A stretch of 62,465 nt of DNA, counting the filler, from Stramenopiles sp. TOSAG23-2 (Eukaryota), in the NCBI GenBank assembly GCA_900128395.1. It is 7 parts of 7 records of this genome, joined end to end, with 100 filler letters (N's around TTAATTAATTAA, not from the genome) between each part and the next. Parts side by side here need not be neighbours in the genome. Positions count along the whole stretch, not along the records: positions 8,973 to 17,839 come from LT650157.1; 6 more parts are not named here. One strand, given 5' to 3'. The notes beneath the pieces are model-generated. The model was not told the DNA's origin. It made no database searches and saw only the letters and a program-made list of their open reading frames with translations. Positions 8,873-53,651 of this stretch are shown here, one piece after another. The first letter of the stretch is position 1, and every line of letters starts with the position of its first letter. A program made the translations under genes and the position numbers.

Positions 8873-8972
8873 NNNNNNNNNNNNNNNNNNNNNNNNNNNN
8901 NNNNNNNNNNNNNNNNTTAATTAATTAANNNNNNNNNNNNNNNNNNNNNNNNNNNNNNNNNNNNNNNNNNNN
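8873..8972. other. Artificial contig linker (N44-TTAATTAATTAA-N44)
   Basis: Exact 100-nt spacer with stops in all six frames, occurring six times in the window. Confidence 0.99.
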
Positions 8973-10143
8973 GTTAGATTTGTTTCTTATAACTCTGTTG
9001 TTGTGATGTTTTAGTAATAAATATATACAATACCAGAATTACATTACTTATAGTAGTAGTATTAGTGTAGGTTGCATATACCTCGTAGTATCGAAAAAAA
9101 AAAACCGCAACTATAATATAAGAATAAAGAGCTCGCCATGGCTCTGCTCAGGGGTGGGGGGGGGAGAGAAAAAAGGGAAAAGGAAAAGGGGGGGGGAAAA
9201 AAGAAGAAGGGGGGAAAAGGAAAAAAAATCAATAGTGTATCCTTATATGTGTCTTAGGGTGTATTTATATGCTATATGAAAATAAATAACATTTCCTTAA
9301 AGCCCTTACTTAACTTTTTATGCGATATATGTGCTAATGATATTTATATGGTACAACCACTATATTCTACTATGCCCTGTGTAAAATACATGATATTTTA
9401 AACAAACAAAGAAACTACAATAGAAACAATTTTTGTATCCAATTTTTCTAAAAAATGATACAGTAGACCAACTATGATCATATTTAGTAAAATTGGTACT
9501 TTTGAGTATTCTGTATGTTGTTTCATACCTTGTATGGCGATGTTTTTCTCGATAACTTATTTTGTCTGTGCGATTTCAGATTGCTTTACAGAGAAATACT
9601 AGGAAAATTGTGTTTATACATCTTAAAAAGCGCAATTTTGCCCTAATTTTGGATACGATAATAATACTACACGTCCAGTAAAAGCCGAAGAAGCATATTC
9701 CAAGTTTTAACCTATCCATATTGATCAAATTTAGCAAAATGCAGTAATATTGTATATCATTCTGTTGGAGATTATTACTTTTTTCACTTGCTTCTGAAGT
9801 TTTTAATCTTTTTAATGGATGACGATCGTAAATCAAGTTCAAGGACAAAAGATGTAAAGATACTTCATAAACTATTTTGTGTATATTATATTATGATAAG
9901 CTGACATTTGTGGCTTTAAAGTTATTGATTTTGACAAACGTTACAGCAATTTGTTTAAGTATGTACAATCACAACGAAGTCAATCTGTTCCATATTTATG
10001 AAATTGACTTAGTCAATTAAAACTAATATTCCCTTTAATTTTTGTATATTACTATATGAAAAATAGTACTTAAATGACATTATAGCGTTCTATTAAAGAA
10101 ACCATTAAGGAAATGGGATAGCATGGACATAGCACAGGGGACA

Positions 10144-10375
10144 TGGGGCGACATGGGGCGACAGCAATGCTATGTACCTACTATTTGTTTTAATCCAAAA
10201 ACCATCATTTTGGCTAATATGGACATAGCATAGTGTTTCCGGAAGTCCCCAAAGTTTTGGGGCGACATGGGGCGACATGGGGCGACAGCAATGCTATTTA
10301 GTGTTAATCGAATATCTCCAAGGCCCCCCGTGGTATGTGCCTGCTATTTTTGTCGCCCCAAGCAATGGGGCGACA
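10144..10375. repeat. Cluster of TGGGGCGACA 10-mers (tandem and inverted), possible transposon subterminal repeats
   Basis: Copies at 10144, 10154, 10258, 10268, 10278, 10366 and an inverted copy at 10351 forming a 10-bp perfect hairpin. Confidence 0.7.
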
Positions 10376-11046
10376 CAATCTACTATAGACACAGCAAGAG
10401 CCAATTCCCCCCCCAAAAGATTATTAGCCCCGCCATTAAGCTGCTGGCCCAGGGCTGGCCTTGCCTTTTTCTTTTACTAACGTTTGCGATCATTCCACGG
10501 CATTGTGTGGGCCAATATTCCGAAAAAATCGGTATTATGAAACTACAAATATATCTACAATTTAATAATAGAACAAAATGTTTTAGAAATTTCATTAAGA
10601 GGAATATTTCGAATATGTGCAAAGGGCGTTACACAAATCATTGCTCTTCTTGTTTGTGCTGCTGCTCGTGGCTCGTTGTGGTGCTGGTGTGTGTGCTGGT
10701 ATGTACAATATGGTGGAGTTTATAGACTAGTCTACTATGTTACCTGTATTACACTACTACTAATAATAATCAATAATAATTAATAATAAATAATAATAAA
10801 AACAACAACTATTATATTAAAATACTGTATAATAATAATTAGATATAACTTTATTCCATTTGTATAAAGTAATTATAAAACTACAAATGAAAAAATATTA
10901 TACAACTCAATAATAATTAAATAGGCGGGAATAATCAATAAATGTAAATATACAAACTTTTAAATTACTTTATAAAATAAAAATTGTAAAACAACGTTAG
11001 TACCTGAAAAAAAATAAATTGTTAAAATAAGTCAAAGATTATAATT

Positions 11047-14000
11047 ATGAGTGAGCAAGAAAAAACCGAGACGCAAGAACCCGTCCAAGAAGAACAAGAG
11101 AAGAAAGAAAAACAAGAAAAACAAGAAAAACACGAGGAGCAACAGGAGCTAGAAAAAATGGAACATGGGGAGGAGAAGGAGGAGGAAGAAGACTCGGATG
11201 AAGATTCTGGCGAAGTTGAAGCAGAGCATCTACATTTTGAGGGAGTAGATTATGGTCTTTTACCAAACGGGGATGTATATACAGAAGAAGGTGAATATGC
11301 GGGGAAATGGGATCCAACAAAGCAGAAAATAATGAAGGAAGAAGAAATTGCACACGAACACTTAAAACATAGACTAACATTTGCCCCCCAAGAATTAAAG
11401 GGCTTAGAAGGCTGTTTTGAGATGATTGACGAGGATAAATCAGGTACGTTAGATTTCAATGAAATTTCAAAAATGTTGGTTGTTGCTGGTTGTATAGTTA
11501 AAGACGAAGTATTATTAGACATTTTTCCAAACTCCGCAACAATAGGTCTTACTGTTAGAGAATTTATAAATGTCTGTTCCCGTAATAAAGACGATCCAGA
11601 AAAAGGGCCAGTAATTGATAGCATAATGAAAAGCGCAGAAAGATTTGCTCTGAAAACATTTAAGAAAGATGAAATATTAGATAAAGAAGAATTGGACCAA
11701 CTGCGTTTATTATTGCGTAAACATTCATATGGTACAACAGGATTTGACCCTACCAAAATATTTAAACGTTGGGATAAAGATAAAGATGGAATGTTAGATT
11801 TCGATGAAATGCATGATTTAATATTTTCGTTAGGGCCAGATCTATCTGAAATAGAATATGAACAATTTTTCCAATATTTAGATCATGATGGCGACGATTT
11901 TATACAAGAGATGCAGTTCTCAGCGTTTATAAGGAAAGAGACTGGCAAAATTGTTCGTAAAAAAAATCGCACGGTAACAAATGCACAAGGAGACAAACAT
12001 TTTATTGATGGTATGCGTGATGATCCTGGTGATGCGAAATTAAAACGTTTCGATGGACGTGCAACTGGTGACGGGAAATGGTCCGCAGATAATATTCTTG
12101 ATGAAAATGAAATTTTAACAGTGAAAAAAAGAATACGTGCAGCTGCATATTATGGGGCTGAAGGATGTGACGTAAGACGTCTATTTAACGAATGGGATAA
12201 AGATCACAATGGCACATTAGATAGGGAAGAATTAGAAGTTCAATTAAAACGTTGCTTGCCAAAATCAGGAATAACAACGGAAGAATTAACACAACTGATA
12301 GATAAAGTAGATACAGGCGGAGATGGAGAGATACAAGTAGAAGAGTTTGTAAAATTTGTTGAAACTAATCCCGAAAAAGTATTGAAATCAAATGGTCGAG
12401 AGACTATTGAATCAAAGCGTGACGTGAAGGAAATAGTTGAGAGCAGAGCCATGTTTTCCCCGGCGGAATTAGTAGAATTGCAAAAATCATTTCAAAAAGC
12501 CGATATTAATAATAATGGGGAAATAGAAGCAGATGAAATGAAAGCAATTTTTGACATATTTGATGCTGATTTATCCGATGAAGCATTGCAATCAATGATA
12601 AAACATGTAGATACAAATAATGACGGCGTAGTCGACTTTGGAGAGTTTATAATTATGTGCGCTAATGCAAAGAAAAATAAGATGCATGATAAAATATTTG
12701 ATAAATTGGCTGCTTTTGCACATATAGCTTCTGAAAAAGTAGGAAATGCGGATGATGTTTTAGATGCTACAGAATTAGACCAAATTCGTATACGCTGGCG
12801 TACACAGTCATATTCTACAAAGGGCTTAGACGTTGAAGGATTGTTTAAAATATTCGATAGGGATAAAGACGATAGATTAAGTTACGATGATTTGCACTAC
12901 AGCATGAAGATTCCAGGAGAATTGAGCGAGGAAGAATTTTCACAATTTTTTAATTATCTTGATCATGACGATGATGATTATGTAAGATTGAAAGAATTCA
13001 AAGCATTCATCATGGTTCGAAAAAGAGGTGTAAGAAAACGTGTTGATAAAGAAATGACACTAGCTATGTCAGGGTCTATGTTTAACGCAGGTGTCCGAGA
13101 CGATCTTGTATTAGATCCGATATCAGATGCTAAATGGAATCCAGATGGGGTGTTGGACGATGATGAAATTATGATGATCAAACGTAAAGTTCGTGCGGCG
13201 TCATATGGAACTGGGGGGCAAAACATTAAGAGATTATTTGCTCAATGGGATAAAGATCAGAGTGGAAACTTAGATTTAGTTGAAATAAGCACTATATTGA
13301 AAAAAATCTTGCCAAAGGCTGGAATATCAGATAAAGAATTGCAACAATTTTTGAAACTTTTGGATAAAGACGACGATGGTCAAATTAGTTTGCAGGAACT
13401 GGAAGACTTCTTAAAGCCAAAAGATGGTCAAAAATATATATCGGCGAAAAAAGCTGAAAAGATAAAAGCTCGAAAAGCACGTAAAGCTGAGCAGGAAAAA
13501 GCCCGTCTAGAAAGCTTGAATGATGCTAAAAGTAAGGCAAAAAAAATTATAATACAGAAAAAGCCAACAATTGATAATTCGCACCAAGAAACAGCGGAGT
13601 ATAAACTGGTAAATACCGTTAGAGACACGTTTGGCTTGCAAGAAATCAATGAGATGAAGAAGCAGTTTAGACGTCTAGATAAAGACGATTCAAAAAAACT
13701 GGACAAATCTGAAGTTGCACAAATGTTTAATGGTTTCAACGTAAAGATAAGCGAAGAGGAATTAAATGATATGATTAAATTGGTTGACATTGATGGAGTA
13801 AGTGATGGGCTAGTTGATATCAAAGAGTTTTTATACATGTGTGCATTAGCAAAGAAAAGTAAATATGCAGATAAGTTTGAGAAGTTATCTCATTCAGTGG
13901 AAAAACGAGCTGAAAAAAACCCTCCTAAACTCAGTGAATACGATTTGCAGCAGATTTTATTGAATTTCAGGGACGCAGCACGGACTTTACGCGGGATTGA

Positions 14001-15879
14001 TCCGTTAAAGCTATTTAGAAGACTTGATAAGGACAAAGATGGATTTTTAAATGATGCAGAGTTTAAACGAGCTGTAAAGTCTATTATGCCCGATTTCACT
14101 CCAGCCCAATTTAATGAATTTCAACGTTACATGAATACAACCGGAACTGGAAAGATCGGTATTGCTGAGTTTTGTCATTTTGTCGATCAAAAGCCTACTG
14201 TGAAGCGAACAGCAACATCAAAAATAGATGGATTCAGCTCTAATATGCGTGCTGGTGCGGCGGCGAAAAAAGTACAGGATGTTTTGCATGGAAAGTTGAA
14301 TTGGACAGACGATAAGGATTTGCCCCAAGAGCATATTTTACAAACGCAAAGTACAATTTTGTCACGATCATATAAAATGTATGGAACAGATTTAGAAGCA
14401 TTGTTTACATCTTGGGATAGAGATTTTGATGGAAAGTTAAGCTTCAAAGAGTTTTATTTGGGATTAAGAAAATATTTAGATCTATCATCGTTTTCAAGAA
14501 AGGAATATATTATGCTGTGGCAACATTTAGATCGCACAAAAAATGGTTTTATTGAACTAGATGAGCTAGAAGCATTTCTAGAAAGAGACTATTATGACTA
14601 CGGTGCATCAGAAGGAAGAACGTTATCGGCTAAAGAGCTTGACCGTTTAAAATTTCAAATAAAAATAAAAGCATATGGGACACATGGGGAAGACTTATAT
14701 CAATTATTTCAAAAATGGGATAAGGATGATAGTGGCACCATGTCAAAAAAGGAATTTAGAAATTTCTTGAATAAGATAATGCCAGGAGTGCTTTCCCCCG
14801 CTGAACTTTCCATCGTTCTGAACGAATTGGATAAAGAAGGCGACAACGAGATATCGTTTGCGGAGTTTGAAACATTCGTAAATGCTGAAAGCCATACATT
14901 AAATTCTAATAAAAAAGGAAAACTCAAACAAACTTATGACATAGAGCCTGACGTTTTTGATAAATTGATGCCTTCTGAATTATTACAAGCCTTAAAAATG
15001 TCACATTTCAAAAGAACAGAAGAAAAGGAACTAGACAAAGTCGTTGCTGAGCTTGGTATGACCTATGAAGATGAAGAAGAGGCGAAAAAGTTGAGAAAGG
15101 CATTCCCAAATGCTGAAGTCGAATGGGCGGGAAAAAAGAAAAATAAAGAGAGAGAAAAGGTAGAATATGCAAAGAAATTAAGAGATGCTGTTATCATACC
15201 GGAAGGAAGCGATGAGACATGGAAAGTACGTGATGATGATCCCGAAGAATTGCTGGCAACTTCACATAGAGTAGCATTGGCAACTGCACAAAAAAATAAT
15301 GTCAAAACTATGAATAAAAATGGCAGTGTGGATCGTTTTTTTGCTGAACCAAACGAGCAGAAGATATCAATTCCTCCCACACGAGGTTTTGTCCATGGTG
15401 TATTTGCCATGCCAAATATAATGAGCTTGCAACATGGTGGTGCATTGGCAGATGATTTTGATGTAAGTTGGAAAGAATTAAACGTAGATTATATAGATCT
15501 TGTATTATCAGAAAGACATCAATTACAGGAAATCATGGAAGCAGCAAAAATGGATCAAATTTACAATGATCAAAAAGTTTACCCACGATATCAATATGAA
15601 GAACACAACTCGCATGATAGATTTGTAGATACATTGACTGGAAGACGAGCATCCAAAGCAGCTCGTGATAAACAGAAATTATTAACAAAAGGAATGTCCA
15701 CTGATAGATTGTCTCCAACAAAATCATTTGGCACACAAACCGAGAAAAAGAAAAGAAAGAGGAGAAAAAAGAAGAAGCTAGGCACAATTATCCCATCGCC
15801 ACCAAAAGGGAATGCATCTGGTGCGATATTAGCCAGCAATTCACCAAGAGCAGGAAAAAATCTAGCTAAAACGAAGTAA
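11047..15879 (+). CDS. Giant multi-EF-hand calcium-binding protein (about 10 EF-hand pairs)
   Basis: Repeated DxDxxGxxxxxE loops (DEDKSGTLD, DKDKDGMLD, DHDGDDFIQ, DKDHNGTLD, DTGGDGEIQ, DINNNGEIE, DTNNDGVVD etc.) in a single 1610-aa ORF. Confidence 0.93.
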   Translation: MSEQEKTETQEPVQEEQEKKEKQEKQEKHEEQQELEKMEHGEEKEEEEDSDEDSGEVEAEHLHFEGVDYGLLPNGDVYTEEGEYAGKWDPTKQKIMKEEEIAHEHLKHRLTFAPQELKGLEGCFEMIDEDKSGTLDFNEISKMLVVAGCIVKDEVLLDIFPNSATIGLTVREFINVCSRNKDDPEKGPVIDSIMKSAERFALKTFKKDEILDKEELDQLRLLLRKHSYGTTGFDPTKIFKRWDKDKDGMLDFDEMHDLIFSLGPDLSEIEYEQFFQYLDHDGDDFIQEMQFSAFIRKETGKIVRKKNRTVTNAQGDKHFIDGMRDDPGDAKLKRFDGRATGDGKWSADNILDENEILTVKKRIRAAAYYGAEGCDVRRLFNEWDKDHNGTLDREELEVQLKRCLPKSGITTEELTQLIDKVDTGGDGEIQVEEFVKFVETNPEKVLKSNGRETIESKRDVKEIVESRAMFSPAELVELQKSFQKADINNNGEIEADEMKAIFDIFDADLSDEALQSMIKHVDTNNDGVVDFGEFIIMCANAKKNKMHDKIFDKLAAFAHIASEKVGNADDVLDATELDQIRIRWRTQSYSTKGLDVEGLFKIFDRDKDDRLSYDDLHYSMKIPGELSEEEFSQFFNYLDHDDDDYVRLKEFKAFIMVRKRGVRKRVDKEMTLAMSGSMFNAGVRDDLVLDPISDAKWNPDGVLDDDEIMMIKRKVRAASYGTGGQNIKRLFAQWDKDQSGNLDLVEISTILKKILPKAGISDKELQQFLKLLDKDDDGQISLQELEDFLKPKDGQKYISAKKAEKIKARKARKAEQEKARLESLNDAKSKAKKIIIQKKPTIDNSHQETAEYKLVNTVRDTFGLQEINEMKKQFRRLDKDDSKKLDKSEVAQMFNGFNVKISEEELNDMIKLVDIDGVSDGLVDIKEFLYMCALAKKSKYADKFEKLSHSVEKRAEKNPPKLSEYDLQQILLNFRDAARTLRGIDPLKLFRRLDKDKDGFLNDAEFKRAVKSIMPDFTPAQFNEFQRYMNTTGTGKIGIAEFCHFVDQKPTVKRTATSKIDGFSSNMRAGAAAKKVQDVLHGKLNWTDDKDLPQEHILQTQSTILSRSYKMYGTDLEALFTSWDRDFDGKLSFKEFYLGLRKYLDLSSFSRKEYIMLWQHLDRTKNGFIELDELEAFLERDYYDYGASEGRTLSAKELDRLKFQIKIKAYGTHGEDLYQLFQKWDKDDSGTMSKKEFRNFLNKIMPGVLSPAELSIVLNELDKEGDNEISFAEFETFVNAESHTLNSNKKGKLKQTYDIEPDVFDKLMPSELLQALKMSHFKRTEEKELDKVVAELGMTYEDEEEAKKLRKAFPNAEVEWAGKKKNKEREKVEYAKKLRDAVIIPEGSDETWKVRDDDPEELLATSHRVALATAQKNNVKTMNKNGSVDRFFAEPNEQKISIPPTRGFVHGVFAMPNIMSLQHGGALADDFDVSWKELNVDYIDLVLSERHQLQEIMEAAKMDQIYNDQKVYPRYQYEEHNSHDRFVDTLTGRRASKAARDKQKLLTKGMSTDRLSPTKSFGTQTEKKKRKRRKKKKLGTIIPSPPKGNASGAILASNSPRAGKNLAKTK

Positions 15880-15919
15880 GCTCTGTATTTTGACTTGTAT
15901 ATATAATTTTTAATTTACG

Positions 15920-15994
15920 CATAATTTATTGTTTTTAATTTTACTCATGATAATTCCTACTCTTCAAAAGAATACAATAACTGAAATAATCTAT
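15920..15994. repeat. Dispersed AT-rich repeat, copy 1 (second copy at 20575..20656)
   Basis: cataattta...ttactcat(g/a)ataattcctactcttcaaaa...gaatacaa...tgaaataatctat shared with another contig. Confidence 0.7.
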
Positions 15995-16756
15995 ATATAT
16001 ATATTTTATTTAAAATTCTAAAATATCTGTGTACATCCCCTGTGTATTTGTATTAAAACAGTCGTCCAGCATTATACGACGTATATATATATATATAAAA
16101 AATTCTCTTACTTAAAATTTAAAAAGATTTTATTTACTCATAAATATATATAATATGTAAACACTAAAAACGATGAATACTTATAATAATATGTCAAAAG
16201 TAATTTCATAAAATGGAAAAGATATAACCGTATCCTCATGCAATTCCTTATATTGATTTCCGTCTTTAAAAGATCCCGTTATGCTTATGCCCCGGTCCTC
16301 ATCATGGGAGTTCTCAATTCTTGTATCGGTATAGATATTTTTTTTTGATTGACCGACGTGTGTCAGAATAGAGTCATTCCTGATGTGTTCCTCATGCAAT
16401 AATTTTATAACCGTGTGACCAATAGAGACGTATATATATATATATACTTCGTCGTAATATATATATATATATTATATATAATACTGTACCGTATATCATG
16501 TATATATATATATATATATATACATGTGTATAATTAGGGTGTATATGAGTTGTGTATGTACGCACAGTCGTTTCAACACACAAATTTTCTCTATACTACT
16601 TTAATGACTTTTCCCTCCTACCTATAGAGAGGATATTATTATTATAAAATTTAACATTTATTTACATCGATTTTGATATACTACAGTATATGTATATAAG
16701 TTGTGTAAAAACCAAACATATTTTGTACTATAGAAAACAATAGAATAACTTCAACC

Positions 16757-17824
16757 ATGTCGCGAGTTATAGGTAACATTAATAAATATTCTGCAATAAC
16801 ACCATCCTGTGGCACTTTGGTATTGATTGGTGGTGGAAATTATATGAATATGTTGCGAACGGTTGTTCAATTAGCAGGTGGTAAAGAAGATATTAAAATT
16901 TGTATAATTTGCACAGCAATGGAGCCGCGACACGTTGGCGCAGCATTTATGATGATGAAGGATTCTTTTGAAAGCATAGGCGTGAAGATGGATAACATTG
17001 TTTCATTACATGCAGCTGATCCTAGCGAAACGCTGGTTGAAGATTTTTGTGATGATATAGATTCAGCAACGTTGGTTTGGTTAGACGGTGGTAGGCAAAG
17101 AACGGTTGTTCAATTAGCAGGTGGTAAAGAAGATATTAAAATTTGTATAATTTGTACAGCAATGGAACCGCGACACGTTGGCGCAGCATTTATGATGATG
17201 AAAGATTCTTTTGAAAGCATAGGCGTGAAGATGGATAACATTGTATCATTACATGCAGCTGATCCTAGCGAAACGCTGGTTGAAGGTTTTTCACTACTAT
17301 ATCTAAGTCGTTGCAACCAAACCAATCTGCCACCATGGCAATGGAGACTATCTGATTCCTATTTGAATACACCGGTGATATCTGCATTACATAGATTATT
17401 AGGTCGAAATGGTGTTATTGCTGGAACATCTGCTGGTGCATCATGGATAGCATCGTACTTAGCCAGAGGTGATTCAGAATCTAATGTACCAATTGTTGGC
17501 GATCATATAATTGGCTCTGGACTTGTAAAAAACGTTGCTGTAGATCAACATTTATTAAGACGTAATCGACAATTTCAAATGTTGGAAATAGTAAATAAAA
17601 ATCCTACTTTATTGGGCATCGGGTTGGACGAGGCTACGGGTCTTGTCATACAAAATGGCAGAGGTATTGTTATTGGGAGTTCCTATGTCGTTTTTTATGC
17701 ATCTCAACAATATTTAAAGGAAATGCAACAGAGTCCATGGCATGAAGTTGGTGGTCCATTTATTTTTTTAAATCCCGGTAGCGTAATTGATTTGCAACAT
17801 CGAGTTATTTTACAAAAGCGATGA
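16757..17824 (+). CDS. cphB: Cyanophycinase (peptidase S51, CphB-like); contains a 243-bp in-frame duplication, native length about 274 aa
   Basis: GTLVLIGGG, GGRQ, nucleophile GTSAGA, DQH..RRNR, GIGLDEATGL motifs (Ser-His-Glu triad). Confidence 0.88.
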   Translation: MSRVIGNINKYSAITPSCGTLVLIGGGNYMNMLRTVVQLAGGKEDIKICIICTAMEPRHVGAAFMMMKDSFESIGVKMDNIVSLHAADPSETLVEDFCDDIDSATLVWLDGGRQRTVVQLAGGKEDIKICIICTAMEPRHVGAAFMMMKDSFESIGVKMDNIVSLHAADPSETLVEGFSLLYLSRCNQTNLPPWQWRLSDSYLNTPVISALHRLLGRNGVIAGTSAGASWIASYLARGDSESNVPIVGDHIIGSGLVKNVAVDQHLLRRNRQFQMLEIVNKNPTLLGIGLDEATGLVIQNGRGIVIGSSYVVFYASQQYLKEMQQSPWHEVGGPFIFLNPGSVIDLQHRVILQKR

Positions 17825-17839
17825 TGTATGAATTTATTA

Positions 17840-17939
17840 NNNNNNNNNNNNNNNNNNNNNNNNNNNNNNNNNNNNNNNNNNNNTTAATTAATTAANNNNN
17901 NNNNNNNNNNNNNNNNNNNNNNNNNNNNNNNNNNNNNNN
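17840..17939. other. Artificial contig linker
   Basis: N44-TTAATTAATTAA-N44. Confidence 0.99.
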
Positions 17940-26785: not shown

Positions 26786-26885
26786 NNNNNNNNNNNNNNN
26801 NNNNNNNNNNNNNNNNNNNNNNNNNNNNNTTAATTAATTAANNNNNNNNNNNNNNNNNNNNNNNNNNNNNNNNNNNNNNNNNNNN
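26786..26885. other. Artificial contig linker
   Basis: N44-TTAATTAATTAA-N44. Confidence 0.99.
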
Positions 26886-27606: not shown

Positions 27607-27920
27607 TTTCTTTATATATATATATAACTGTATTAATAATAATGATTTATTTCCCTTGATGAAATAATAATAATAATAAAAGTATATTGGTAAGATTTAT
27701 TAAATAGTTTTGTATAAAAAAATCTGGCAAATAATATTGATTATCACAGTAATGTATATGTTTAAATATATGTTAATTTTTTATTTGACACTCTAGCTTG
27801 AAAAAAGCTTTTCGGCTTCTTTAATATGTTTCTTTGTTTGTATAAAAAAATCTGGCAAATAATATTGATTATCACAGTAATGTATATGTTTAAATATATG
27901 TTAATTTTTTATTTGACACT

Positions 27921-29756: not shown

Positions 29757-30134
29757 CTTTAAGCAAAATAAAAACGTTAAACGTGTGACGTTAAAATATA
29801 CCAAATACAACTTTAAGCAAAATAAAATACTTTAAACGCGTGACGGTAAAATATACAAATACGAACTTCAAGCAAAATAAAATACTTTAAACGCGTGACG
29901 GTAAAATATACAAATACGAACTTCAAGCAAAATAAAATACTTTAAACGCGTGACGGTAAAATATACAAATACGAACTTCAAGCAAAATAAAATACTTTAA
30001 ACGCGTGACGGTAAAATATACAAATACGAACTTCAAGCAAAATAAAATACTTTAAACGCGTGACGTTTTTGTTACAAAAAAATATATATATCGAATACGA
30101 ACTTTAAACAAATTAAAAACTTTAAACGCGTGAC
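29757..30134. repeat. 55-bp tandem array (5 near-perfect plus 2 degenerate units) containing ACGCGT
   Basis: Unit aagcaaaataaaatactttaaacgcgtgacggtaaaatatacaaatacgaacttc; tttaaacgcg at 29831, 29886, 29941, 29996, 30051; degenerate near 29777 and 30121. Confidence 0.95.
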
Positions 30135-31708: not shown

Positions 31709-34502
31709 ATGTCAACAAATATTAATACAAATAATACCACCACCAATGGTAAAACAATATGTAACACCTTCACTTTACAAGAACACATGTATCTACAGAC
31801 GATATTACTTCATATGAATGCATCTGAAAACCTATCTACTGTTACGGAAGACTCGAACAATTCTAATAACATACAAAACGACGAAACAAATGTAACTAAC
31901 AACTACGTAAATAAATTATGGAGTTATGCGGATATTCTATACACACCAGATATTATACAAGTTGTACGGTGTGAAAATACGAAGGATGTCCAGGAAATAA
32001 AATCATGCAACTTGCACTTAACAAAAAAAAAAATGGAAGCACATTGTAAATGCACTTGTTATTATAACAATTTACAACCCTTCAAAGACATGAAAACAAA
32101 TATTGAACTATCCAAAAGAAGTGGTCCTAGTATGCAACCAACAGAACGATATGAATGGTTTTATCTACAAAGTTTACGACGTATTATTTGTTCTCGTGAA
32201 TTCAACGGTGGGCCATTACAATATGTAAAAGGTGGGAATTTAGTAGTAACTATCGGTGGTAAAAAAACCAAACCAAATGGTAATATTTTACATTTAAGTA
32301 CATACTCCAATGTATGCATTGGATCAAAAATTGAGGTATTAGATTCCGTTCAATCAAAGACACCAAAAGAAACAATTCAAATAGTGCAGGCAAAACCGTT
32401 TGTAGAATCTCTTGATCGTGGTGTTGTTAATCTTAAAGCGAATCAACGGTTTACACTCCCATCGTCAACAAACGAATACAATTCCAGAAAAAAGGAAGGT
32501 CTTGGAAATGAAAAACATCGTTTTCAAAACGAGCCATCTACAAGCAAAATTATGGGTATGATAGGCATGGCATGCAGCGGTAAAAATGGTGCCATCGCAA
32601 ATGTTGCTAATGACGTAGGTGTTACGATACGTTGGGGCGAGGAAGACGATTTACAAGCCTTTCAAACAATTCAAGACAGGAGAAATAATAATATCAATAT
32701 GAACGTAGATACGGGAAGCGATAATAATAACAATATTAATAGCGACATAACCGAAAAAAACAAGAAAAAAATTACCATGAATAAGACCACAAACAATCAA
32801 AAAGGTTTTGGATATTCGAATAACAATATCAATTGGATTACAGTTACATTTGACGAGGAATGTATGAACGTACCGGTTGATGCTACGTACAAAGATATTT
32901 ACAATTCCAAACGAGATCAAAGGAAAAATGGTGAATATAAAACTACCAATTGGAACCTTGCAATTCATAAATGGTTACGGAAATTACCAACAATTAAAAA
33001 TTTACAATTCCAAACGAGATCAAAGGAAAAATGGTGAATATAAAACTACCAATTGGAACCTTGCAATTCATAAATGGTTACGGAAATTACCAACAATTAA
33101 AAATTGTAACAACGATTGTAACTTACCAAGTAGATGGAGAGACTTCAAAGTTATGTTAACAAATTTGGATTTTAAACTGATACGCCCAGAATACAACGTT
33201 GGCAACGGTGTCGAAAAAAAGAAAACGTTTTTTTTCCAACATTGTTTTTTTTCTCCAAACCATACGTATTTATGGAAGTATATACGCAGACGTTCTGCAA
33301 AAGTGTCTAAACAATGGAAATTACAACCGATTTACCACCATAAATACAACATGCAATCAAATGACGGCAGTAGTTGCAAGAAAACAATGCAACGCGTTAA
33401 TCCACGAGCTAAGGTCAATTACATTACTGGATATGTATCCATCGATAAGAACAAAAAGATACAAGGTGTAACTGCATGGGAGACAAAACAAATATACAAT
33501 AAATTTGTACCTGTATCGATCTCCAGAAATTGTTATGTATGCCACGCTACATATCGATCCGATACGAAACAATTTTCAATTGCGTTTGAAGATATAACCA
33601 ACAACAATGACGGCGAGTTAAGTGCTGAGGAAAAAAACAAAGTAATGCAAGATAAGAAAGATATATTACAACATTATGTACAACAAGGTAATCGTGTATA
33701 TGGGATCGGTTTAAAATTATTAGCAACTATCGATTCCAATGTAAAGGTTCAACGAAACAAAGTGTTATTTAAATTAGAAAATTCGGAAACGTATGAGGAA
33801 CACGATATACCGACAGCAGGATTGCAATTAACAATTGAACATATATGCAAAGGATGTAACACGTGTAATAACTTTGTAAATCAACACAATATTATCAACG
33901 CGTACAACCGTTTATCGCATAATGAATTTTTTGAATTTTACAAAATATATCGAAAAGACATATCCAATATGGTATATTACATGTTATCGTCTCATAAGGT
34001 AGTTGATTTTACTCTTTCAGCAAAAAATCATCACAAAGCATTTTTAAAAGTAAAAAAAAAAGTAAAAGTAGGAAATGGTAAAGAAAGTACGGAAGTAGAC
34101 AAAAGTATAGGTATGATAGGCGCATTTTACGAATTTGTGTTGGATTATAGTGGACCCGATAATATATTTCATCAATACAACGATACCAAGGATGGTGGTA
34201 AATTGAAGTGGAGAAGAACAGAGAAACTAAAAGATGATTTCACTTGGCCTGTATTGACAGATATGTTTAATAAGAAAAATAAATGTAATGTTATTGCAAT
34301 TAAGTTCAGCAAATGGCTTCGAATAATGAATGAAAGATTAGGTAATGGGAAAAAATGGAATGGGCAACGATGGATAACGGAGGGCATAAACAACGAATCC
34401 AAGAACCCTTCCTCTTTTTTTCGGTCTTTACGTAACCACATTCTAACACTCTCTAGGAAGGTTTATAATTTCTTATATTTCCCTACTATATATAAAAATT
34501 AA
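31709..34502 (+). CDS. Large orphan protein (about 896 aa after removing a 103-bp duplication), Cys/His clusters
   Basis: Two long ORFs join in frame on deleting the duplicate 32897/33000; motifs HCKCTC, CYVCH, HICKGCNTC; no family recognised. Confidence 0.6.
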
Positions 34503-34557: not shown

Positions 34558-34920
34558 TTATTTCCTTTTTACTCGAATCTTGTACATACGTTTATTATTA
34601 GCTTTTTTCTTTTTTATTTTCCTTTTTTTCTTTTTCCAATCTCCACTATTATTATTATTATTAATATTATTAGTATTATTATTCATACCACCATCATCAT
34701 TTCGTCCTTGGAATGTGTTCCGATTATTATCGATATGTTGCATATTAAATGATGCATTCATATTCCTACCATCTAACATCATATCACTGCGGCGTCTTTT
34801 TTTATTTATTTTCAACGAAGAAGAAGAAACATTTCCAGCTTGTTGTTCCATTAATTTTGCATAATGTTTATACGACTTCTCCGCACAAGATGGGAAGGAG
34901 AAAAAAAGCCAGAAATGCAT
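34558..34920 (-). CDS. Hypothetical basic/Asn-rich ORF, partial paralog of 35116..35520
   Basis: Shares AEKSYKHYAKL..QQAGN.SSSSLKINKKR.RSD with the neighbouring ORF; no clear start. Confidence 0.3.
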   Translation of the reverse strand: MHFWLFFSFPSCAEKSYKHYAKLMEQQAGNVSSSSLKINKKRRRSDMMLDGRNMNASFNMQHIDNNRNTFQGRNDDGGMNNNTNNINNNNNSGDWKKKKRKIKKKKANNKRMYKIRVKRK

Positions 34921-35115
34921 TGGTGTAAGATTGTGTCTCTGGGATAGAGAAAGTTACCTACCAATGATACTTCCGGTTCACAAACTATATATATTTAATG
35001 ATGAGTAAAATCTTTTAATTATTTAAATATAAGAGAATTATTTATGATATAATATGATTATATTATAAAATATTATAACTTAGATTTTAACCATCATTTT
35101 ATATATACTCTTATT

Positions 35116-35708: not shown

Positions 35709-35808
35709 NNNNNNNNNNNNNNNNNNNNNNNNNNNNNNNNNNNNNNNNNNNNTTAATTAATTAANNNNNNNNNNNNNNNNNNNNNNNNNNNNNNNNNNNN
35801 NNNNNNNN
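35709..35808. other. Artificial contig linker
   Basis: N44-TTAATTAATTAA-N44. Confidence 0.99.
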
Positions 35809-39571: not shown

Positions 39572-40498
39572 ATGACGGATTATTATAAAATATTAAATAT
39601 AAGACGGGATGCAACTTTGGATGAAGTTAGAAATGCATATCGTGTATTATCAATGTCATGGAATCCAATGAAAAATAACAATTCAGATGAAGCAGCAAAC
39701 ATGTTCCAAACCGTTGCGGAAGCATATGATGTATTGAGTACACCACAATATCGTGGTATTTATGATTTAAGAGGATCACGTGGTTTAAGCGAAGAAAATT
39801 ATGTATTATCACGAACACCAGAAAAAATATTTTCCAAATTTTTTGGAACATCAAATCCATTTGCACAAGTAACATTTAGCAGTGCATTTGTTGATGAGGA
39901 AACAAAAAGACAAAGCAATGTATTGTCCGTGCGCACTGCAGAGGCAGGCGTCGTTCTTAATTGCACATTAGAAGAATTGTATTGTGGTGCACAAAAATAT
40001 GCAAATGTTCCAACCATGTCATTAGCTGGGGAAGTGGTTGAAAAAACAATATTGGTCGATGTAAAACCAGGTAGTACCAATGGCAGTACATTCTTGTATA
40101 AAACTGTTGGAAATCATGACAAAGGGAAAGAACCAGGTGATGTGAAATTTACAATCAATCAATTGCCACATAGTTTATTCGAAGTCTCTGGCTCCAATTT
40201 GCATTACAAAGCAACGATTACATTGTCAGAAGCAATGGGTAATTGTTTGATTGATGTTCCAACGTTGGATGGACGTGGTGTATGTGTTGAATATGGTGAA
40301 GTCATTGCACCAAATGACGTGAAAGTTGTTGCTGGTGAAGGTATGCCTAATGGAAATGGTGGTTATGGCGATTTAATCATCCGTTTCGAAGTTACATTTC
40401 CAAAACATTTGGAATTAGACCAAAAAGAAACAATACGTAGTGTTTTAAGTGGCAAGCCATGTAAGTTTAGATGGGGTACTCAATCCAATAAGAAATAA
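39572..40498 (+). CDS. DNAJB13: Type II DnaJ/Hsp40, DNAJB13/RSP16-like (HPD replaced by NPM)
   Basis: DYYKILNI, AEAYDVLS, FFGTSNPF, CTLEELYCG, PGDV.F, VPTLDGR, GEGMP...GDLII.F...FP. Confidence 0.75.
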   Translation: MTDYYKILNIRRDATLDEVRNAYRVLSMSWNPMKNNNSDEAANMFQTVAEAYDVLSTPQYRGIYDLRGSRGLSEENYVLSRTPEKIFSKFFGTSNPFAQVTFSSAFVDEETKRQSNVLSVRTAEAGVVLNCTLEELYCGAQKYANVPTMSLAGEVVEKTILVDVKPGSTNGSTFLYKTVGNHDKGKEPGDVKFTINQLPHSLFEVSGSNLHYKATITLSEAMGNCLIDVPTLDGRGVCVEYGEVIAPNDVKVVAGEGMPNGNGGYGDLIIRFEVTFPKHLELDQKETIRSVLSGKPCKFRWGTQSNKK

Positions 40499-44630: not shown

Positions 44631-44730
44631 NNNNNNNNNNNNNNNNNNNNNNNNNNNNNNNNNNNNNNNNNNNNTTAATTAATTAANNNNNNNNNNNNNN
44701 NNNNNNNNNNNNNNNNNNNNNNNNNNNNNN
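44631..44730. other. Artificial contig linker
   Basis: N44-TTAATTAATTAA-N44. Confidence 0.99.
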
Positions 44731-53551: not shown

Positions 53552-53651
53552 NNNNNNNNNNNNNNNNNNNNNNNNNNNNNNNNNNNNNNNNNNNNTTAAT
53601 TAATTAANNNNNNNNNNNNNNNNNNNNNNNNNNNNNNNNNNNNNNNNNNNN
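53552..53651. other. Artificial contig linker
   Basis: N44-TTAATTAATTAA-N44. Confidence 0.99.

Follow-up and report, generated by a model that had tools for sequence, protein, structure and literature searches.

How a gene resembling a bacterial cyanophycinase came to stand in the DNA of a eukaryote, and what its product could do there, is the question raised by an open frame at 16757..17824 (plus strand, 355 amino acids (aa) as recorded) in a stretch of 62,465 nucleotides (nt) from Stramenopiles sp. TOSAG23-2 (GCA_900128395.1), referred to below as the window. Cyanophycin is a nitrogen store, and cyanophycinases break it down. A first-pass annotation, made from the sequence alone, had described the frame as a cyanophycinase with which a grazer mines the cyanophycin of its prey. 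Our analysis showed that the frame holds a transcribed, selectively kept, single-exon gene of 274 codons, which is of bacterial descent and lies in eukaryote-like DNA. Judged by its sequence, the gene encodes a bacterial-type S51 peptidase that belongs to the cyanophycinase branch rather than to that of peptidase E; it is called the S51 gene here.

The Recorded Frame and Its 243-nt Block

The recorded frame contains an inserted block of 243 nt (17094..17336, plus strand), the joint of which may slide by up to 5 nt. This block separates a native 5' part (16757..17093, plus strand), running from the start codon to the GGRQ loop and comprising codons 1-112 of the 274-aa form, from a native 3' part (17337..17824, plus strand) that includes the TGA stop at 17822-17824; TGA is also used by 3 of 9 Pfam-supported host open reading frames (ORFs). 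An in-frame stop is present 17 codons upstream of the ATG. The block itself consists of a diverged direct copy of 16857-17048, located at 17100..17291 (plus strand; spacing 243, 97% identity), and of a copy of 17049-17093 at 17292..17336 (plus strand) that is complemented but unreversed, with 45 of 45 bases complementary in the same direction. We know of no replication or recombination event that yields a complement without reversal. The second copy differs from the first at five positions, four of which are synonymous, while the fifth causes D96G, an allele also carried by two metagenome contigs, L001 and L002, so the second copy looks like another haplotype pasted in.

Contigs of four public runs were placed on 14500-17839, including X1 and X2, which are small organism-labeled DNA runs, X15, a seawater polyA metatranscriptome, and X6. 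In one contig each of X1, X2, and X15, position 17093 was joined straight to 17337, skipping the 243 nt; X6 gave no cover over the S51 gene, about 55% of that run having been read. The block was likewise missing from the independent contigs L001 and L002, and L001, DNA contigs of X1 and X2, and RNA contigs of X15 all ran colinear with the 5' part. A 274-aa protein, P0001, heads a cluster of 29 members at 90% identity from NCBI, ENA, JGI, Logan, Tara, and EukProt. The 243-nt duplication is an artifact of the record and is not biological. It had been taken as a feature of the gene, a view that has to be given up, since the X1, X2, and X15 contigs skip the block, L001 and L002 lack it, and 45 nt of it are complement-only; the length of 274 aa once the duplication is removed was correctly foreseen and matches P0001, the best database relative.

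Two variant ends were also seen. In L002 (643-765), TTA replaces the TGA stop and the frame extends by 40 codons, and the C terminus of P0122 (277 aa) is different. Both represent the same gene, altered by population variation or by assembly errors.

Residence and Transcription

The S51 gene lies on a piece of the window (8973..17839) that ends 15 nt past its stop codon. Its flanks are rich in (TA)n and microsatellites and have 26-30% GC, as the first-pass annotation had indicated for the (TA)n runs. The GC content at third codon positions of the native gene was 0.26, compared with 0.19-0.28 in the 9 Pfam-supported host genes. Its relative synonymous codon usage (RSCU) correlated with that of the host genes at 0.76, where host genes among themselves gave 0.86-0.97 and for 76 bacterial relatives the median was -0.34 and the highest value 0.77. 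Next after the gene, L001 and L002 carry a convergent ORF on the minus strand (L001 1463-2887; L002 811-2241). Its product is an orphan protein, 474-476 aa long, in which polyQ runs and an acidic tail occur, and the RSCU correlation of this ORF is 0.94. Pfam gave no match for the two other ORFs of L001, this neighbor included, and its only relatives besides its own cluster were five unnamed environmental proteins with 51-67% identity.

PolyA transcript evidence, which had been named as a check, was obtained from X15, whose polyA-RNA contigs cover 16734-16941, 16982-17521 (without the block), and 17589-17757. The X15 depth over the S51 gene resembled that over the EF-hand gene of the same piece, and the spacer bins of 16404-16739 were at 0 to 0.19. 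Nine small organism-labeled runs from two studies contained 0.61-0.74 of the words of 15400-17839, and five further RNA runs had word shares of 0.19-0.28. One member of the P0001 cluster appears under both ENA and eukprot, and a pattern search of IMG/VR for the S51 gene gave no match.

The linkage to the EF-hand gene was one argument of the first-pass annotation. The EF-hand ORF (11047..15879; 1610 aa; EF-hand_7, E = 2e-88) does share the piece with the S51 gene, but no contig of the four runs bridges 15910-16535, all of them breaking in the spacer (15880..16756, unstranded), which is AT-rich, carries (TA)n runs, and includes a block of about 330 nt that is absent from L001. L001 matches the window from 16427 onward, lacks 16096-16426, and matches window 15928-16095 again with its positions 1-166 at 93% identity, ending 49 nt before the EF-hand ORF. 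It is plausible that the S51 gene adjoins the EF-hand gene. The block at 16096-16426 has ACGTATATATATATATATA at both ends, and over it the X1 and X2 contigs fragment into pieces of 39-159 nt; in polyA RNA and in the seawater metagenome alike, it was covered several times more deeply than the genes on either side. An ORF of 72 aa lies in it on the minus strand (16181..16399). A search of 15880-16760 with Rfam gave just sub-threshold miRNA-like matches in (TA)n, and a phage DNA search with 16096-16430 gave no match. A repeated or mobile element could account for the block, as could an insertion polymorphism.

Residence of the S51 gene in a eukaryote is well supported, and as a horizontally transferred, eukaryote-resident gene it is borne out by the trees described below, codon usage, the neighboring ORF, and the polyA-RNA contigs. 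Bacterial contamination, or a contig chimeric between a eukaryote and a bacterium, is highly improbable. Such an origin would fit the proven artifact on the contig, the lack of an outside contig that bridges 15910-16535, the difference between L001 and the window upstream of about 16427, and the RSCU correlation with the host genes, which is as high as 0.77 in some AT-rich bacterial relatives. It is opposed by L001 and L002, both of which carry the gene beside the ORF with polyQ runs, acidic tail, and host codon usage (0.94), an ORF related only to unnamed environmental proteins, and by the polyA-RNA contigs that cover the gene, its microsatellite-rich flanks of 26-30% GC, the 93% match of L001 1-166 to the window, and the identity of just 44-48% to the nearest bacterial protein. 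As to a coverage break before 16757, which was to have spoken against residence, contigs do break at AT-rich repeats within 15910-16535, and this speaks neither for nor against the linkage to the EF-hand gene. The argument from the contig is retained for the eukaryote-like DNA and weakened by the linker-joined pieces, the absent EF-hand bridge, and the artifact. Still less credible is that the 243-nt duplication is a real allele, that is, a polymorphic in-frame tandem duplication. The block is in frame (81 codons) and the variants of its second copy, four synonymous ones and D96G, look natural; however, it breaks the GGRQ loop, it is missing from all three runs that cover the site and from both metagenome contigs, and its 45-nt complement-only stretch has no known biological origin. 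Elsewhere in the window, moreover, lie another complement-only pair and short tandem duplications at about 20 other places, so the fault is one of the record and not of the S51 gene.

Family, Fold, and Active Site

The motif set reported for the S51 family was present (GGRQ, GTSAG, DQH..RRNR, and LDE). Against Pfam PF03575 (Peptidase_S51), the native form scored 53.9 bits and the window ORF 42.2 bits, both above the cut-off of 23.9. With the NCBIfam cyanophycinase model TIGR02069, the window ORF gave 96.9 bits and the native 274-aa form 102.2 bits, and with the peptidase E (PepE) model NF003642 the native form scored 25.2 bits, below the cut-off of 156. Solved structures matched by sequence were CphB 3en0 (E = 7.5e-20), 7uqw, 7uqv, and 6nqc; no PepE chain was found among solved structures at E ≤ 0.01. 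An AlphaFold2 model of the 274-aa form, built from 40 sequences, had a predicted local distance difference test score of 88.8. In Foldseek, this model showed a CphB-like fold, matching 3en0 and 7uqw with E ~2e-18, template modeling (TM) scores of 0.77-0.78, and 26% identity, while PepE and Xenopus dipeptidase E gave TM scores of 0.62-0.67 and 15-17% identity. Grouping with peptidase E, which would have counted against the first-pass assignment, was not found; the profile, the sequence, and the fold all pointed to the cyanophycinase branch.

The catalytic triad of CphB, Ser132, His174, and Glu201, aligns in 3en0 with Ser144, His184, and Glu211 of the protist protein, and these three residues were invariant across the 40 aligned rows. 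The codon of the predicted nucleophile Ser144 (CphB Ser132) lies at 17429..17431, that of the predicted catalytic His184 (CphB His174) at 17549..17551, and that of the predicted catalytic Glu211, which aligns with the Glu of the CphB "IDED" stretch, at 17630..17632, all on the plus strand. In the same alignment, Gln114, Asp182, Gln183, Arg188, and Arg190 correspond to CphB Gln101, Asp172, Gln173, Arg178, and Arg180. The remark that the third Arg after DQH is replaced by Gln was confirmed, as Gln193 (codon 17576..17578, plus strand) occupies the position of CphB Arg183; Asp stands there in the bacterial sister clade. In PMC3235067, which cites Law et al. 2009, Gln101, Asp172, Gln173, Arg178, Arg180, and Arg183 are given as critical for CphB activity, and CphE is described as keeping all six save Gln173.

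Bacterial Relatives and Phylogeny

Relatives were drawn from the best 80 of 557 confirmed loci. Within these, all named relatives were bacterial, with 38-48% identity, and at least 120 matches listed agreed with this; they belonged to Bacteroidota, Gemmatimonadota, Acidobacteriota, Planctomycetota, and Pseudomonadales, and no cyanobacteria occurred among the best 80 of the 557. The ESM Atlas yielded bacterial cyanophycinase clusters only. Among representatives at 50% identity, the gene's own cluster (a 145-aa fragment, 98%) was followed by bacterial-looking proteins with at most 55% identity over partial length. No such gap separates the neighboring gene from its relatives (67% and 51%), a hint that the S51 gene is limited to one narrow lineage.

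Positions 113 (CphB Asp100) and 193 (CphB Arg183) were compared in 434 S51 domains, extracted from the collected proteins and from those loci among L003-L082 that yielded an ORF (76 of 80), a set biased to relatives of the query. The two positions co-vary. CphB has Asp and Arg (D/R), whereas 329 domains have Arg and Asp (R/D); Arg and Gln (R/Q) occur in 15 domains, the three examples shown being members of the protist cluster, a residue other than Arg at 113 with Arg at 193 (non-R/R) in 43, and Arg at both (R/R) in 2. This pattern may reflect a swapped or relocated pocket charge.

A quick maximum-likelihood tree of 104 rows, with CphB-type (non-R/R) domains of unnamed proteins as the outgroup, placed the protist protein inside a 92-row R/D clade with a Shimodaira-Hasegawa-like approximate likelihood ratio support of 100 against 12 CphB-type domains. 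Its placement within the clade was unsure, the branch being 2.35 long against a median of 0.44. In a more careful tree of 54 of the 104 rows, the protist protein was sister to the C-terminal domain of P0139 (support 95/80), with two Saprospiraceae proteins next (70/94), in an eight-row group of long Saprospirales-type proteins (91/81). P0139 is a fusion of Abhydrolase_10 and S51 and shares 44% identity with the protist protein over 261 residues. The bacterial origin proposed for the gene is upheld by both trees, in which it nests among bacterial sequences. P0139, P0150, L009, L013, and L014 were all seen to be Saprospirales-type proteins of about 950 aa, with Abhydrolase_10 (PF20091) and a C-terminal cyanophycinase-like S51 domain.

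The absence of a signal peptide also held, as the best 9-residue Kyte-Doolittle mean was 0.27 in the protist protein against at least 1.5 in 39 of 39 bacterial relatives, the single-domain rows chosen for alignment. Among three haplotypes of the gene, 5 of about 186 synonymous sites and 2 of about 636 non-synonymous sites varied, giving a ratio of about 0.12 from few counts. The gene is under purifying selection.

The surroundings of the bacterial genes were scanned for two ORFs per side, which gave 92 ORFs from 23 loci; 36 loci were tried, and the ORF caller missed the target in 13. SusC/SusD-type genes stood directly upstream of an exported S51 gene in 3 of the 23 loci, all from Bacteroidota (L041 1627-5824, Chitinophaga; L047 1428-5900, Mucilaginibacter; L055 3990-5324, Pedobacter). 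L055 has two S51 genes in a row. According to PMC10206079, cyanophycinase and isoaspartyl dipeptidase are clustered in 45 of 52 cphA-less genomes that have both genes, and a "cyanophycin utilization locus" is cited there. Our locus sample fits exported scavenger enzymes just loosely, which leaves room for another substrate.

Possible Role of the S51 Gene

We propose a reading that we regard as about evenly poised between right and wrong, namely that the 274-codon gene, transferred, leaderless, and transcribed, with its duplication an artifact, encodes a cytosolic beta-aspartyl hydrolase of the cyanophycin type. The gene would have been acquired by horizontal transfer from bacteria into an AT-rich marine eukaryote. 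Its donor would have been a member of the large, exported clade to which NCBI gives the name cyanophycinase, the closest relative sampled probably being the C-terminal domain of the Saprospirales-type alpha/beta-hydrolase-S51 fusions. The signal peptide would have been lost, and host codon usage adopted, during or after the transfer. The predicted Ser144-His184-Glu211 hydrolase may then cleave beta-aspartyl peptides (cyanophycin-type, beta-Asp-Arg/Lys) in the cytosol, and soluble oligomers reaching the cytosol would be a likelier substrate than granules in a food vacuole.

Several observations weigh against this proposal. We know of no assayed member of the R/D clade. The S51 gene stays below the TIGR02069 equivalog cut-off of 126.6 bits, which the bacterial relatives P0008 and P0011 pass with 137.8 and 141.4 bits. 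Five of the six CphB pocket residues are kept, but Arg183 is replaced by Gln193, which bears on membership because this residue is cited as critical and because the curated cut-off is missed as well. The first-pass assignment as a cyanophycinase can be maintained at the level of the S51 cyanophycinase branch, to which TIGR02069, the solved structures, and Foldseek point. The best Foldseek E-value (1.9e-19; TM 0.75; 27% identity) was obtained with 7uqv, the "pseudo-CphB" of Pseudobacteroides cellulosolvens, the title of which indicates that some look-alikes of CphB are not counted as true CphB; 7uqv retains Asp100 and Arg183 like CphB, whereas the protist protein has Arg113 and Gln193. Of the 76 columns in which the 39 bacterial relatives show conservation of 90% or more, the protist protein also departs at 10 (the bacterial rows at 2 in the median and at no more than 8), and its end branch is 1.38 to 2.35 changes per column long against medians of 0.38 to 0.44. 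The donor placement comes from one 54-row tree and this long branch, and the cytosolic location solely from the missing N-terminal hydrophobic stretch. Finally, cphA exceeded the cut-off in none of the 5 bacterial genomes tested of 80, and neither cphA nor isoaspartyl dipeptidase was found within two ORFs at E ≤ 1e-10 in any of the 23 loci (92 ORFs).

Alternatively, the whole Arg113/Asp193 clade ("GGRQW...RNRQFD"), the protist copy included, would consist of S51 hydrolases for another substrate that are not true cyanophycinases, with a cytosolic role in the protist unrelated to cyanophycin. This is possible, though we consider it somewhat doubtful. The co-variation of residues 113 and 193 in the 434 domains, the lack of cphA in the five genomes, the existence of the "pseudo-CphB" in the PDB, and the fusion of the closest subclade to an alpha/beta hydrolase domain all fit it, as does the count of 0 of 23 loci with a nearby cphA or isoaspartyl dipeptidase against the 45 of 52 published in PMC10206079. 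However, bacterial members score above the equivalog cut-off (137.8 and 141.4 bits), only one of the six pocket residues is lost, the swap may merely shift the Arg to another loop with the pocket charge kept, and the scan covered two ORFs per side with a crude ORF caller. Digestion of cyanophycin granules of prey cyanobacteria in the food vacuole, by which the protist would mine prey nitrogen, is unlikely. In its favor are the place of the gene in the cyanophycinase branch, its transcripts in seawater polyA RNA, and its exported bacterial relatives, which in 3 of 23 loci stand directly behind SusC/SusD, similar to the "cyanophycin utilization locus" mentioned in PMC10206079. Yet the protist protein has no signal peptide or N-terminal extension, the frame is preceded by an in-frame stop 17 codons upstream, and Arg183 is lost. 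Cyanophycin storage is not known from most of the abundant picocyanobacteria of the open ocean, which also speaks against such digestion. The grazer that mines prey cyanophycin, as first described, found no direct support, the protein lacking a signal peptide with which to reach a food vacuole. A missing signal peptide fits a cytosolic store of the protist's own better than vacuolar digestion; even so, it is very unlikely that the protist makes, or takes from prey, a cyanophycin-like beta-Asp-Arg polymer as a cytosolic nitrogen store that the leaderless enzyme mobilizes. If this were true, cyanophycin metabolism would be seen in a eukaryote for the first time.

Should the proposed cytosolic hydrolase act on cyanophycin-type peptides, an abundant uncultured marine micro-eukaryote would have gained a bacterial tool for beta-aspartyl nitrogen, adding a link between bacterial nitrogen stores and protist nutrition. 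Apart from the substrate, the gene offers a clean example of a bacterial gene that was passed to a protist, is expressed there, and has lost its leader peptide. The comparison also brought out a very large clade, automatically named cyanophycinase, in which the Asp100/Arg183 pair is swapped and no link to cyanophycin genes was visible in the samples.

Other Features of the Window

The window consists of seven pieces joined by six linkers of the form N44-TTAATTAATTAA-N44 (8873-8972, 17840-17939, 26786-26885, 35709-35808, 44631-44730, and 53552-53651), and the piece lengths drop from about 8.87 to 8.81 kb, as though separate contigs had been put in order of size and strung together. Because the pieces are linker-joined, gene neighborhood across any linker carries no meaning. 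This applies to the DnaJ gene (39572..40498), which sits on another, linker-separated piece. The start context "caaccATG" is indeed common to both genes, but it was found at only 2 of 15 inspected starts and carries little weight. Eukaryotic families among the other ORFs of the window were DHHC, E2F/DP, formin FH2, cyclin, protein kinase, and WD40.

The second exact 45-nt complement-only (unreversed) pair lies at 34405-34449 and 34891-34935, with five identical bases on each side and a distance of 486 nt (2 x 243), and one of its copies falls within ORF 32877..34502. The further short tandem duplications in the 62 kb, about 20 in number, have 96-100% identity and spacings of 43-630 nt and are mostly two-copy; examples are found at 27709 (+128), 28517 (+83), 29171 (+117), 32897 (+103), 37618 (+109), 38385 (+106), 42451 (+100), 52753 (+92), and 55369 (+96). 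The duplication at 29815 (spacing 55, about 190 nt) resembles an array of greater length. Where ORFs 31709..33037 and 32877..34502 overlap, the duplication at 32897 is found, and it may therefore have broken some gene models. Anyone reading this assembly can be misled by such non-biological edits, namely complement-only 45-mers and short tandem duplications.

Comparison with Known Systems

CphB, the intracellular cyanophycinase of Synechocystis PCC 6803 (3en0, 7uqw; TIGR02069; MEROPS S51), has the same fold as the protist protein (TM 0.77-0.78). Neither has a signal peptide, and the triad is kept together with Gln101, Asp172, Gln173, Arg178, and Arg180. In contrast, identity is 26%, the protist protein has Gln in place of Arg183 and Arg in place of Asp100 and scores below the equivalog cut-off, and its host is eukaryotic. 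The extracellular CphE of Pseudomonas anguilliseptica and P. alcaligenes, compared here by description, shares the S51 cyanophycinase branch, and the bacterial relatives of the protist gene are likewise exported and occur in non-producers. CphE keeps the equivalent of Arg183 as Arg233, according to PMC3235067, whereas the protist protein has Gln and no leader. PepE and Xenopus dipeptidase E (1fy2, 6a4r, and 7c9b) share the S51 fold and include a eukaryotic S51 enzyme already solved, but they form a different S51 branch and match the protist protein far more weakly. The exported GGRQW...RNRQFD clade, with the Saprospirales fusions (P0139, L009, and L013), shares Arg113 and is sister in the tree; it differs in being bacterial, in its signal peptide or long N-terminal domain, and in having Asp193 where the protist protein has Gln193.

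Literature linking cyanophycinase with a protist gene was searched for, and none was found. A parallel is offered by fungi, as cyanophycinase genes have moved from bacteria into Pezizomycotina, including Pyrenophora and others, according to PMC3612039. In both cases, a bacterial cyanophycinase-type gene is present in a eukaryote, and the fungal top match given there, Spirosoma linguale (Cytophagales, 47%), belongs to the same broad bacterial group as relatives of the protist gene. The fungal proteins, with which the protist protein was compared by description, differ in their hosts and, as stated in PMC3612039, in being predicted to be secreted. Transfer of cyanophycinase into fungi is thus already published, and the protist gene adds to a known phenomenon.

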